Position numbers and translations under genes: made by a program. A DNA stretch of 28,800 nucleotides. Origin: Candidatus Altiarchaeota archaeon (GTDB lineage: Archaea; SpSt-1190). The notes under the pieces were generated by a model. The model saw only the letters and a program-made list of their open reading frames with translations. It had not been told where the DNA came from and did not search any database. Location: positions 1 to 28,800 of the forward strand of contig JAAOXX010000001.1 in assembly GCA_018221025.1 (NCBI GenBank), read 5' to 3'. Of the stretch, positions 25,341-28,800 are shown piece by piece; the first letter of the stretch is position 1; each line of letters begins with the position of its first letter.

Positions 25341-25886
25341 GTGTTCGAAATTGCAACAATCAAGCAAAATGTGAGAGTTCCTCCAAGACTTTGGAAAAAG
25401 AACATCAAATTGGCAGTTAAAGCGGCCTTACGCGAGTTGGAAGGTAAAGTTTCCAAAATGCACGGTATACTTTTGTCCATAACTGATGTTAAATCCGTCG
25501 GAGAAGGTAAGATTTTACCTGGTGACGGGGCAGTATATTTTCCTACAGACTTTGAGGCTTTGATTTTTAGACCAGAACTAAATGAAGTCGTTGACAGTGA
25601 AGTTACCGACATGACAGAATTTGGTGCATTTTTACGAGTTGGCGCACTCGATGGATTAGTCCACGTGAGCCAAGTTTCAGATGACTTCTTCAGCTACAGC
25701 AAAGAAGGAGTACTACAAGGCAAGCAGAGTAAACAAATTGTTAAAATTGGTGACAAGGTTCGAGCACGAATAATCAGTGTTAGTTATAAGGCCGAGCCAG
25801 CAAAGCTTGGTTTAACTATGAGGCAGCCTGGACTCGGAAAATGGGAATGGTTGGAGGCGAATAGAATTGGCAACAAAAAGGAGTAA
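25341..25886 (+). CDS. rpoE1: RNA polymerase subunit Rpo7 (RpoE')
   Basis: VRVPP, GEGKILPGDGAVY, EFGAFLRVGALDGLVHVSQVSDD, GDKVRARIISVS, LTMRQPGLGKWEW; GAGGTGG SD. Confidence 0.97.
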   Translation: MFEIATIKQNVRVPPRLWKKNIKLAVKAALRELEGKVSKMHGILLSITDVKSVGEGKILPGDGAVYFPTDFEALIFRPELNEVVDSEVTDMTEFGAFLRVGALDGLVHVSQVSDDFFSYSKEGVLQGKQSKQIVKIGDKVRARIISVSYKAEPAKLGLTMRQPGLGKWEWLEANRIGNKKE

Positions 25887-26061
25887 AGTTTGTAGGAGTT
25901 GTCGTGTCTTTGTTAACGGCAAGAAATGCTCCATGTGTGAAGGCACAGAATTTAGTTCAACTTGGGCAGGCATAGCTATTATAATGGACCCCACCAAATC
26001 AGAAGTAGCAAAGAAAATGGACGTAGCAGTCCCAGGAAAATATGCACTAAAGGTGAGATAA
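25867..26061 (+). CDS. spt4: Transcription elongation factor Spt4 (RpoE'')
   Basis: CRSC...CSMC zinc finger, W.G..II.DP.KSEVAK, PGKYALKVR. Confidence 0.95.
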   Translation: MATKRSKVCRSCRVFVNGKKCSMCEGTEFSSTWAGIAIIMDPTKSEVAKKMDVAVPGKYALKVR

Positions 26062-26553
26062 ATGAAAATGAATATAATTTCAGATAATACAAATCCGCTT
26101 CTATCAAGAAGAGAGGTGGAATTTCAAGTAATCCATGATGGTGGAGCAACACCAAGAAAAATAGATGTCGCAGGATTACTTTCGGCTAAATTGAATACGA
26201 GTCTCGACAAGATGGTTATTGAAGATTATACTACGCATTTTGGAAAGAATACAAGCGAGGGAATATGTTTTGTATACGAGGATAAAGAAGCAATGATTAG
26301 AGCTGAACCTACAAAACTATTGAATCCAAAGAAAAGAATTGGGGATGCGGGCAAACCTAAAGAAAAGGAAAAAACTGAAGTAAAGGAAGCTCCTAAAGAA
26401 GAAGAGAAGCCAACTGAGGTAAAAAAAACTCCTGAAGAAAAAGCCGAAGTAAAGGTTGAAAAGCCTAAAGTTGAGGAAAAGAAGGCCAAAGTAGTAGAAA
26501 CCCCAAAAGAAGAAGGTGAAAAGAGTGAAACACAAGACAGTAAAAAAGAGTGA
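26062..26553 (+). CDS. rps24e: 30S ribosomal protein S24e with charged C-terminal extension
   Basis: NPLLSRREVEF.V.H.G.ATP, T.FG...S.G...VY; K/E/P-rich tail. Confidence 0.95.
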   Translation: MKMNIISDNTNPLLSRREVEFQVIHDGGATPRKIDVAGLLSAKLNTSLDKMVIEDYTTHFGKNTSEGICFVYEDKEAMIRAEPTKLLNPKKRIGDAGKPKEKEKTEVKEAPKEEEKPTEVKKTPEEKAEVKVEKPKVEEKKAKVVETPKEEGEKSETQDSKKE

Positions 26554-26692
26554 TTATTTCAAGATTGAAGGGGATAAAATTACAAGAGAAAGAAAATCTT
26601 GCCCCAAGTGTGGGTCCGGCGTATTTCTTGCCAACCACGGCAATCGATTACACTGTGGTAGATGCAGATACACTGAGTTCGTAAAGGCTTAA
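26525..26692 (+). CDS. rps27ae: 30S ribosomal protein S27ae (55 aa, below the ORF-track cutoff)
   Basis: Translated by hand from GTG 26525 after GAAGGTGA SD: MKHKTVKKSDYFKIEGDKITRERKSCPKCGSGVFLANHGNRLHCGRCRYTEFVKA. Confidence 0.95.
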   Translation: MKHKTVKKSDYFKIEGDKITRERKSCPKCGSGVFLANHGNRLHCGRCRYTEFVKA

Positions 26693-26715
26693 AATAACCC
26701 GTAGTTAGGTGTTTT

Positions 26716-27528
26716 GTGGAAAAAGCGAAGACATTAATGGAAAATTTTAGGGCTGGGAAAATTGAATTAGGCAAGGAGCTCACTCTCGCGTGCCTCTCTT
26801 TGTTTAATGAAGCTTTCAAGAGGAATGAAGAGACGTTTCTAAAAAATAGGGAAAACTTTGTTTTAGAAATCCTTTCAAGACCTATAGACCCTTTGACTAA
26901 TAATTTTTTAGAGGCAATTATGAAAGCCAAAACAGTTAAGGAAACTCAAAAAGTATTGACATTTACGAAGGAATATCTCAAAGATTCGAGAAAAAAATTG
27001 ATTCCTAATGGGAGCAACCTACTCAAAGGAAAGAAAACGGTAATGGCAATTGGTTATTCAGAAGTCCTTGCGGAAATGATTGACGAGCACAAATCAGAAT
27101 TGACAGTTTATGTACCTGAGCTATCTTTAACAAAGGCCGGACACAAGATGGCATCACGCTTATCTGCAAATACAATTTTGATTCCAGACTGCGCAGTTGG
27201 ATACTTCATCCCTTCAGTTGACCTAGTATTAACGAGGAGCTGCTGTGTTTCGACTTCAGGATTGTTAGGTTCATCTAATGCAAAGTCAGCAGCAATAATT
27301 GCAGAGTGGCACGATAAACCATTTTACATGATAGCAGAACTCTTACGAATTGGGGAAAGTTTTGTAGTGAATGAACACAAATGGGATGTCAAGTGTCAGA
27401 ATAGGGCGCCATTATATGATAAAGTTGAACCAGAGCTGGTTTCCGGAATTGTAACGGAGGAAGGTATTTTAACGCATGAATCCTATATCGATAAAGCTAA
27501 TGAAAAGAAAGAGGAGATGATTAAATGA
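26716..27528 (+). CDS. Divergent eIF-2B alpha/beta/delta / ribose-1,5-bisphosphate isomerase family protein
   Basis: LIPDCAVGYFIPSVDLVL, KPFYMIAE, APLYDKVEPELVSGIVTEEGIL; conserved ligand motifs altered. Confidence 0.75.
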   Translation: MEKAKTLMENFRAGKIELGKELTLACLSLFNEAFKRNEETFLKNRENFVLEILSRPIDPLTNNFLEAIMKAKTVKETQKVLTFTKEYLKDSRKKLIPNGSNLLKGKKTVMAIGYSEVLAEMIDEHKSELTVYVPELSLTKAGHKMASRLSANTILIPDCAVGYFIPSVDLVLTRSCCVSTSGLLGSSNAKSAAIIAEWHDKPFYMIAELLRIGESFVVNEHKWDVKCQNRAPLYDKVEPELVSGIVTEEGILTHESYIDKANEKKEEMIK

Positions 27529-27662
27529 GTACTCTTGAAATCTTATGGAATGTGTTAATATTCGTATTGAGTCTGTTTGCAGGACTTCTTGCAGGGAATT
27601 TCTTTGGGGAAAGCAGAGCAGAAAGTTTTAGATACAAATACTTGGGCGGTGGAAAACCATGA
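27525..27662 (+). CDS. 45-aa single-TM protein (not in ORF track)
   Basis: ATGA overlap with upstream stop; MSTLEILWNVLIFVLSLFAGLLAGNFFGESRAESFRYKYLGGGKP. Confidence 0.65.
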   Translation: MSTLEILWNVLIFVLSLFAGLLAGNFFGESRAESFRYKYLGGGKP

Positions 27663-27796
27663 TATCAAGGACTGACTTATTGGTAATACTTGTCGGATAC
27701 GCTATTGGTCTCGGTATTGGATTTTGGTATGGTATGAGAAGCGGAAAACAAAAATTTTGGAGAATGCCTGGTAGTAGTTGGAAGGTGAGAAAGTGA
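27659..27796 (+). CDS. 45-aa single-TM protein (not in ORF track)
   Basis: ATGA overlap upstream and GTGA overlap downstream; MISRTDLLVILVGYAIGLGIGFWYGMRSGKQKFWRMPGSSWKVRK. Confidence 0.65.
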   Translation: MISRTDLLVILVGYAIGLGIGFWYGMRSGKQKFWRMPGSSWKVRK

Positions 27797-28155
27797 TTCA
27801 AATTGCAGTTGTAGGCAGTACGAGTGCTGCATTCCATGCTGCGAAAAAAGGGTTTGCCGTATTTGGTATTGAACCAGAACTGGAGAGTCATGCCGCAAAG
27901 GCCGGCGGATTATTTATTTTATTTGGAGTTGAAGAAACTAAACTCAATATTAAGTTTCGAGACAAGGTTGATGCTGCGAGTAAGATGATTGAATCGGCGG
28001 ATATTGTAATAATTGGTAAAGGTCAAAATGCTAAATTTGTAAAACAAATGTGCGACCTAAAAGGAATTAAGTATGTCGAAGGAACAGGCGAAGACGTCGT
28101 TGAAAAGGCAAAAGAAAGACTAGTCAGATTCAACTTATTCGGAACCAAGAAGTAA
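27793..28155 (+). CDS. Hypothetical protein, weakly SLOG/LOG (TIGR00725-like) Rossmann fold
   Basis: GTG 27793 after GAAGGTGA SD; MIQIAVVGS, AAKAGG, MIESADIVII resemble the SLOG skeleton. Confidence 0.55.
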   Translation: MIQIAVVGSTSAAFHAAKKGFAVFGIEPELESHAAKAGGLFILFGVEETKLNIKFRDKVDAASKMIESADIVIIGKGQNAKFVKQMCDLKGIKYVEGTGEDVVEKAKERLVRFNLFGTKK

Positions 28156-28156
28156 T

Positions 28157-28800
28157 TTACTTTTCAGTTGGAGTTTTCTTATTATCTTGTATCTTTTCGT
28201 CAACAACTTTTTTTGATTCTTCGACTGGTTTTTCAACCGGAGTTTCTTCATTGACGACTTCAGTACTTTCTGTGGATACTTCAACTATGGGTTCAACTTC
28301 AGGTTCAACATCTTTAGGAGTTTCAGGAGTACCTGCGGGTATTTCCAAGGGTTGTTCTTCTTCCTTAATTTCAACCGTCTCGATTACTCTCTTAACTTCT
28401 TTTTTCTCGGGTTCAACTCTGAATGTAATTTCATCACTAAATGTTGCATCTGGTGCAAGGATTGAAACTTTTACTCCAATAACTCCGGGCCGTGTCATTG
28501 CTTTTGCATATGCAATTTGAACTTGGTCAATTGCATCTTGGCCACATTTTCTGAGTTTTCCTGATGTAAAAATCCATGTCTTTGACCTTGCACTTGGAAG
28601 CTTGCCACCAAGGCGGATTTCAACTCCCTTTGCACCGGCCTGAACGACTCTTTGCATTGTAATATTTGCAACTCGTTTGAAGTATGCACCCTTCTCTAAT
28701 GAACGTGCAATTCTCCATGCAACAACGTGTGGGTCGAGGGATGCTTCCCTAATTTGCTCAACCTCGAGGTGTGGATTTTCTACACCAAACCTTGAGCCAA
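28157..28800 (-). CDS. rps3: 30S ribosomal protein S3 (5' part outside the window) with acidic C-terminal extension
   Basis: Frame stays open to the window edge: FGVENPHLEV...LDPHVVAWRIARSLEKGAYFKR...AGAKGVEIRLGGKL...GVIGVKVSI. Confidence 0.96.
   Translation of the reverse strand, partial: GSRFGVENPHLEVEQIREASLDPHVVAWRIARSLEKGAYFKRVANITMQRVVQAGAKGVEIRLGGKLPSARSKTWIFTSGKLRKCGQDAIDQVQIAYAKAMTRPGVIGVKVSILAPDATFSDEITFRVEPEKKEVKRVIETVEIKEEEQPLEIPAGTPETPKDVEPEVEPIVEVSTESTEVVNEETPVEKPVEESKKVVDEKIQDNKKTPTEK

Follow-up and report, generated by a model that had tools for sequence, protein, structure and literature searches.

Proteins of the SLOG superfamily, such as the LOG proteins (cytokinin riboside-5'-monophosphate phosphoribohydrolases), the Moco carrier protein (MCP), DprA/Smf and the TM1055/TT1887 proteins, hold phosphorylated ligands at the C-terminal edge of their sheet. 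In the SLOG-SLATT and other sensor-plus-2TM-effector conflict systems a SLOG-fold protein is encoded together with small membrane partners, in SLATT a domain with two transmembrane (TM) helices (2TM). Here we describe a locus that shares this outline, in a DPANN archaeon (Candidatus Altiarchaeota archaeon SpSt-1190; genome of 632 kb in 75 contigs, ~86% complete) whose close relatives carry the labels Altiarchaeota, Undinarchaeota or "archaeon" in public records. Within the stretch of DNA that was analyzed (28,800 nt, hereafter the window), four open reading frames (ORFs) of the plus strand occupy positions 26716-28155: P1 (26716-27528; 270 aa), pepA (27525-27662) and pepB (27659-27796), which each code for a bitopic micro-protein of 45 aa, and P4 (27793-28155; 120 aa). 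P4 is predicted to be an alpha/beta protein of the cytoplasm whose fold is a minimal version of the SLOG type. In contrast to the SLOG-SLATT systems, the membrane partners here are two single-pass peptides and not a 2TM domain, they lie in a housekeeping context and are inherited vertically, and a PADLOC search finds no match. We know of no system in which a bare SLOG domain occurs together with two single-pass peptides.

The remaining protein, P1, is by profile match and predicted structure a bona fide, non-catalytic member of the IF-2B family, with the fold of eIF2B-alpha and ribose-1,5-bisphosphate (R15P) isomerase. This family contains the eIF2B alpha, beta and delta subunits, the archaeal aIF2B proteins (PH0440; 1vb5) and the R15P isomerase (R15Pi) of the archaeal AMP / pentose-bisphosphate pathway. 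The eIF2B and aIF2B proteins descend from sugar-phosphate isomerases and are non-catalytic. The aIF2Bs have lost most of the catalytic residues, and a loss of catalysis in a protein of the isomerase family is the presumed origin of the eIF2B regulatory subunits (Kuhle et al., 2015, PMC4787765).

The order pepA-pepB-P4 was found in eight of the nine other species-level genomes of the window's family (f1) and in 11 further public loci, which are all those with enough flanking sequence. In the ninth genome (G003) the triad was not detected and, because the ribosomal gene rps27ae that precedes the locus was likewise undetected there, the locus is probably unassembled and was not counted as a real absence. 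Three other families of the same class-level group (f2, f3 and f4) were also compared. The pepA profile matched 8/9 genomes of f1, 2/2 of f2, 1/1 of f3 and 4/4 of f4, and the pepB profile 8/9 of f1, 1/1 of f3 and 4/4 of f4, always directly 3' of pepA; against 104 other archaeal genomes the two profiles gave only chance-level matches (for pepA, a single weak one). P1 is not part of all these loci. In one genus of the window's family (L015) and in three further public loci (L026, L042 and L044) the triad without P1 directly follows rps27ae, and in f3 (L022) and f4 (L023 and L032-L034) the triad without P1 lies in wholly different neighbourhoods. Since the triad stands without P1 in a sub-lineage of the window's family and in f3 and f4, the conserved unit is the three genes pepA, pepB and P4, in three families (f1, f3 and f4), and the single four-gene cassette that a sequence-only reading of the window had proposed has to be given up. 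P1 is an accessory member, which is restricted to part of the window's family and dispensable for the core module. In f1, f3 and f4 the triad genes overlap by 4 nt or 1 nt or are spaced by zero to few bases, and the persistence of the triad exceeds the general compaction of the window. The operon is lineage-restricted and vertically inherited.

The surroundings of the triad differ among the other families. In f4, at L032:1726-2625 and L033:1834-2718, it comes after a gene whose product is a membrane protein of the peptidase A24 type (prepilin/preflagellin peptidase-like), and downstream, on the opposite strand, there is a gene with a TRAM domain; none of the other families has this arrangement. 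In the large genomes of f2 the pepA-like protein (L035:3036-3260 and L036:3037-3264) is 75 aa long, with an extra N-terminal hydrophobic segment, and its gene is followed by one for a 70-aa CxxC...CxxC zinc-ribbon protein in place of pepB and P4.

Both peptides are shorter than the 60-aa default minimum of the ORF listing. Among seven orthologs of the window's family, in genomes that range from ~38% to ~60% G+C, 15 columns are invariant in pepA and 16 in pepB. The mean nonsynonymous difference (pN) is 0.22 for pepA and 0.28 for pepB, at a synonymous difference (pS) of 0.87 and 0.83, respectively; pairwise synonymous differences are saturated, with pS of about 0.8-0.87. Mean pN is 0.30 for P4, 0.47 for P1, 0.25 for S27ae and 0.23 for Spt4. 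Low pN together with saturated synonymous sites shows that the two peptides are as constrained at the protein level as the neighbouring ribosomal and transcription proteins S27ae and Spt4, and that pepA and pepB are genuine genes under purifying selection. The possibility that these small ORFs are artefacts or antisense genes was rejected, as the conservation tracks the plus-strand frames, Shine-Dalgarno (SD) motifs are present and the synonymous sites are saturated. Neither peptide has a significant match among the Pfam, NCBIfam and PADLOC profiles, and the relatives of pepA fall into 39 clusters in 5.8 billion proteins, none of them named. In one ortholog locus (L003:2262-2387, genome G004) the pepA sequence is fully conserved and contains no in-frame ATG, GTG or TTG; the frame opens with ATA-ATA directly after the P1 stop, for which an error in the assembly, re-initiation or the use of a non-canonical start codon could account.

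Each peptide contains one hydrophobic stretch, at residues 6-24 in pepA and 7-25 in pepB, followed by a C-terminal tail with a net charge of +2 in pepA and +7 in pepB. The predicted pepA helix (about residues 6-27) carries the pattern A/G-x3-G-x3-G and the tail motif is GE-x3-E-x2-R-Y-x-Y-L-x-G. The pepB helix forms a G-x3-G-x3-G-x3-G glycine zipper and its basic/aromatic tail reads GK-x-(K/R)-FW-(R/K)-MP-x2-SW-K-x-RK. These features agree with the earlier description of two membrane peptides with one Gly-rich helix each. The hydrophobic stretch with its positively charged C-terminal flank would fit a single-pass N-out/C-in topology. In a profile-profile comparison of the two families by hhalign (probability 90%, E 1.6e-6, 39 columns) pepA matches pepB, which suggests a tandem duplication, so that the two are probably paralogous.

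The P4 structure was predicted by AlphaFold2 (AF2) with a pLDDT of 87.9. When this model was compared exhaustively with solved structures by VIA-align, the eight best matches were all SLOG proteins, which superpose over 108-118 of the 120 residues with Z between 9.7 and 12.7: MCP (2iz5; Z 12.7), TM1055 (1rcu; Z 11.4), TT1887 (1weh; Z 11.3), a type-II LOG (Z 10.6), DprA (Z 10.6), TT1465 (Z 10.3), YgdH (Z 9.7) and a fungal LOG (Z 9.7), compared with Z 8.9 or less for ordinary NAD-Rossmann proteins. The top matches of Foldseek agree with this SLOG set. Analysis of the P4 orthologs shows conserved, nearly invariant glycines after beta-1 (G8), beta-4 (G75 and G77) and beta-5 (G97 and G99) and a C-terminal motif VR(F/Y)NLFG-x-K. 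The loops after these three strands are where Rossmann-type folds hold phosphates, and in P4 the glycine-rich loops lie at the same C-terminal sheet edge at which the SLOG proteins hold their phosphorylated ligands.

P4 also differs from the described SLOG proteins. It is ~40-60 residues shorter and is always encoded with two bitopic peptides. The GGxxGxM (or GGxGxM) motif after beta-2 is absent, with the P4 sequence reading G-I-E-P-E-L-E-S at this place and the f3 and f4 orthologs T-x-D/E-x-x-x-G, and the PGGxGTxxE motif after beta-4 is replaced by a reduced form, (I/V)G-x-G-x3-[E/K]-[F/L], in which G77 is nearly invariant and the motif Glu is kept in many orthologs and is Lys in the window. 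The sequence-only reading had described the last ORF as a SLOG-like skeleton without either motif; the skeleton and the loss of the first motif are supported by our data, and the second motif is reduced, not absent. In sequence searches P4 is an orphan. No family was found for it in Pfam and NCBIfam. Among its orthologs, those of f3 and f4 reach the Pfam model 'SLOG cluster4' (LDcluster4) below threshold (E 0.002 and 0.06), and only 2 of 24 family members match this model, under the cut-off (18.1 vs 26.3 bits). Sequence relatives of P4 form 15 clusters among 5.8 billion proteins, its family profile finds nine representatives among 1.84 billion, the ESM Atlas gave no usable match and a profile search of the PDB sequences returned only chance-level matches, e.g., phosphoglycerate kinase. 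P4 was also considered as a fragment of an eIF2B domain and this was rejected, with a profile-profile probability of 0.4% to P1, to which it is unrelated. On its predicted model, P4 is a minimal SLOG-fold protein, a member of the superfamily by fold and not by sequence motif.

P1 matches the Pfam IF-2B family (PF01008) with 63.7 bits against a cut-off of 22.4, and with 58.5 bits in a six-frame genome search. P1 is full-length for this fold: its AF2 model (pLDDT 91.6) consists of a helical bundle at the N-terminus and a Rossmann-like domain at the C-terminus, and the top Foldseek matches are eIF2B-alpha, R15Pi and PH0440 (1vb5), with TM-scores of 0.75-0.84. When aligned with the canonical paralogs that these genomes also carry, 7/7 P1 orthologs lack the catalytic Cys (xCHS), the Asp (GxD) and NKIGT. 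The paralogs' (I/H)CHS, ETRP, G(I/A)DA and NKIGT align with IGYS, ELSL, RSC (TRSC over the Asp motif) and GSSNA in P1. The same four strings had been read from the window alone and taken to indicate a degenerate eIF2B/R15Pi-like protein that lacks the Cys, Asp, ESRP, GAD and NKIGT motifs, and this description is confirmed by the alignment. The canonical paralogs keep xCHS, ETRP, GxDA and NKIGT and adjoin RuBisCO form III. One of them, in genome G000 (contig C15:3692-4099, L024), retains ETRP, GIDA and NKVGT in a gene that is cut by the contig end; in relatives (L037-L039) the canonical paralog and form III RuBisCO are neighbours, in keeping with the AMP / pentose-bisphosphate pathway.

The P1 motifs have decayed differently in its two sub-clades. 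That of the window keeps SRP..PL..N and has changed ESRP to ELSL; the other has lost the first-motif Arg, and ESRP is present in only one (L005) of its three members. From the known roles of these motifs, such differing decay argues against a conserved sugar-phosphate pocket and against sensing through the ancestral ligand pocket of P1. The metabolite-sensing role that the sequence-only reading had proposed for the cassette gains no direct support from the data. P1 was also considered as a pseudogene; this was rejected on the grounds that all orthologs seen have an open frame, pN is lower than pS and the model is confident.

Another question that is raised by P1 is its origin. Its family profile scores best against eIF2B-alpha among the solved structures (107 bits), followed by PH0440 (101 bits) and R15Pi (74 bits), and for the least diverged ortholog (L005) the R15Pi equivalog is the top-scoring model, with 107 bits. 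P1 itself stays far below both equivalog cut-offs, with 21.7 bits for R15P isomerase (TIGR00511; cut-off 314.1) and 22.6 bits for aIF2B-alpha (NF006210; cut-off 339), a model that gives 487 bits to an anchor protein taken from a genome with three paralogs. P1 shares the two-domain fold and the loss of catalytic residues with eIF2B and aIF2B, yet NK(I/V)GT is also gone in P1; unlike the R15P isomerases, it has no catalytic Cys or Asp and does not lie next to RuBisCO. In a free maximum-likelihood (ML) tree the P1 clade, on long branches, stands beside R15Pi-like proteins of f4 (support 92/79) and is separated from the anchored (Thermococcales) aIF2B-alpha clade by a 99/96 branch. A tree constrained to join P1 with aIF2B-alpha is worse by only 10.1 log-likelihood units and is not rejected by the approximately unbiased (AU) test (p 0.06). 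P1 may be an isomerase duplicate that has decayed or else a protein of the aIF2B type, between which the tree test (AU p 0.06) does not separate. In archaea of another family (f22; L082:475-1248 and L083:449-1222) a 258-aa IF-2B-like protein (Pfam ~40 bits) has also diverged very far; a very long branch joins it to the aIF2B-alpha anchors, and it seems to be a separate instance of an eIF2B-like protein with strong divergence.

The stop and start codons of the four genes overlap as ATGA, ATGA and GTGA, as had been noted from the sequence, with the first gene 23 nt after rps27ae. P1 and P4 start with GTG, and the P4 orthologs have ATG at the same aligned position. An SD-like motif on the plus strand precedes each start: AGGTG (26707-26711), 4 nt 5' of the P1 start; GAGGAG (27511-27516), 5' of pepA and within the P1 coding sequence; GGTGG (27648-27652), 5' of pepB; and AGGTGA (27783-27788), 5' of P4. 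Orthologs have GAGG/GGAGG-like motifs at the equivalent position before pepA, GGTG before pepB (retained in L002, L005, L006, L007 and L015) and GGAAGG(T/C)GA before P4. The conserved Gly codons at the pepA C-terminus supply the motif before pepB, and the conserved W-K-V-R codons of pepB supply that before P4; the codons for the last residues of pepA (L-G/S-G) and of pepB (S-W-K-V/A-R-K) thus double as SD bases of the next gene, and part of the conservation of these residues may reflect the translation signal. The overlaps and SD motifs mark the genes as co-transcribed and tightly coupled in translation, as had been proposed.

A mechanism that fits these data is a complex which is anchored in the membrane, restricted to this lineage and equipped with a small SLOG subunit that binds a ligand, a reading to which we give about an even chance. 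In such a complex pepA and pepB would insert N-out/C-in and would pair or oligomerise through their glycine-zipper helices, so that the acidic/aromatic tail of pepA and the basic/aromatic tail of pepB would lie at the cytoplasmic face of the membrane. These tails may dock P4, which would bind a phosphorylated, probably nucleotide-derived, ligand in a crevice lined by the three conserved glycine loops. The stop/start overlaps, along with SD motifs that lie inside the gene before, would lead to stoichiometric co-translation. In most of the window's family P1 has been added in front, coupled in the same manner, and it would be made together with the triad where it is present. The operon structure suggests that both P4 and P1 are tethered to the membrane.

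Several points weigh against this reading. Coupling by overlap alone is weak evidence for a complex, because four-base overlaps are frequent in the compact genome of the window, and the loci compared across f1, f3 and f4 show no conserved neighbours beyond the triad that would point to a pathway. P4 matches no SLOG family above threshold by sequence and, judging from the missing first glycine motif and the reduced second one, may bind no ligand. A weak search among longer proteins found no fused forms of P4, and the composition of the TM helices may inflate the profile match between pepA and pepB. Contact among the proteins, topology, ligand binding and the link to translation are points that we infer.

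One possible option is that two unrelated units abut solely through the compactness of the genome, with P1 as a soluble aIF2B-like homolog of translation factors and the triad as a separate membrane module that is functionally independent of P1. The cassette lacks P1 in f3, in f4 and in one sub-lineage of the window's family, the P1 sequence changes at about double the rate of the triad (pN 0.47 vs 0.22-0.30), overlapping genes are frequent in the window, and P1 sits among translation genes and has its best profile matches with eIF2B-alpha and PH0440 among solved structures. However, where P1 is present it is always directly 5' of pepA, and in those genomes it turned up at no other place; in the window, L002 and L005-L007 the stop of P1 overlaps the start of pepA, in L003 and L004 the two genes abut, and the free tree sets P1 apart from the Thermococcales aIF2B-alpha clade. 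We consider such an arrangement possible though rather unlikely. A step beyond the membrane-anchored complex would be that the triad is an undescribed housekeeping membrane micro-complex of this DPANN group which, through P1, couples a membrane nucleotide-binding module to translation, and that P1 is a second, independent conversion from a sugar-phosphate isomerase into a non-enzymatic eIF2B-like protein; taken jointly, these two statements are improbable.

A conflict or defence module, in which P4 senses a signalling nucleotide and the peptides form a pore, has some attraction, as SLOG domains are nucleotide sensors in Thoeris ThsA and pore-forming helices typically carry glycine zippers. The ThsA SLOG domains reach Z 7.0-7.7 with P4, and among the SLATT profiles pepA has only a chance-level match, below significance, to the RT-associated SLATT model (RTasSLATT; E 0.055, 11.3 bits), with no match for pepB. 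Defence islands, on the other hand, are patchy and fast-evolving, whereas the triad is vertically inherited, keeps its synteny next to core ribosomal genes, occurs in almost all genomes of the group and is conserved at the level of ribosomal proteins, and PADLOC gave no match for P1, pepB, P4 or two P4 orthologs. Because of this vertical inheritance, the core-gene neighbourhood and the missing PADLOC match, we rate a defence role as quite improbable. That P4 is a degenerate protein of the small-GTPase fold is very improbable: it has no P-loop GxxxxGK[ST] and no Pfam GTPase match, and the structural comparison speaks against this reading in placing no GTPase among the 50 best matches and SLOG proteins in the top eight.

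In the window the operon lies downstream of the plus-strand cluster rpoE'(rpo7)-spt4-rps24e-rps27ae (25341-26692; Pfam matches to S24e and S27a). The 23-nt gap after the end of rps27ae at 26692 is found in the window's family, and the gene order upstream is identical in L002-L007 and L015; rps3 lies downstream and converges on the operon. The earlier suggestion that the genes sit in the position of kae1 carries no weight, and a replacement of kae1 was rejected, since kae1 is found on another contig of the genome. Two neighbouring ribosomal proteins have C-terminal extensions, which in relatives are shorter or different: that of rps24e (26062-26553) is Lys/Glu-rich and ~70 residues long, and that of rps3 (28157-28657) is long and acidic. 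rps27ae has its start 38 nt inside the tail of rps24e.

The triad alone does not answer a long-standing question, and its value lies in being a clean, testable orphan system. P4 would be among the smallest SLOG-fold proteins and is convenient for asking what the bare fold binds. P1 offers a natural example of the loss of catalysis in the isomerase family beside an intact paralog and, if the triad and P1 do couple to translation, the origin of the eIF2B regulatory subunits would have in this locus an archaeal parallel that is tethered to the membrane. In these ultra-small archaeal genomes two micro-proteins of 45 residues are conserved like ribosomal proteins. The triad is retained in genomes from which most of the metabolism has been lost, and it therefore probably does something important at the membrane.

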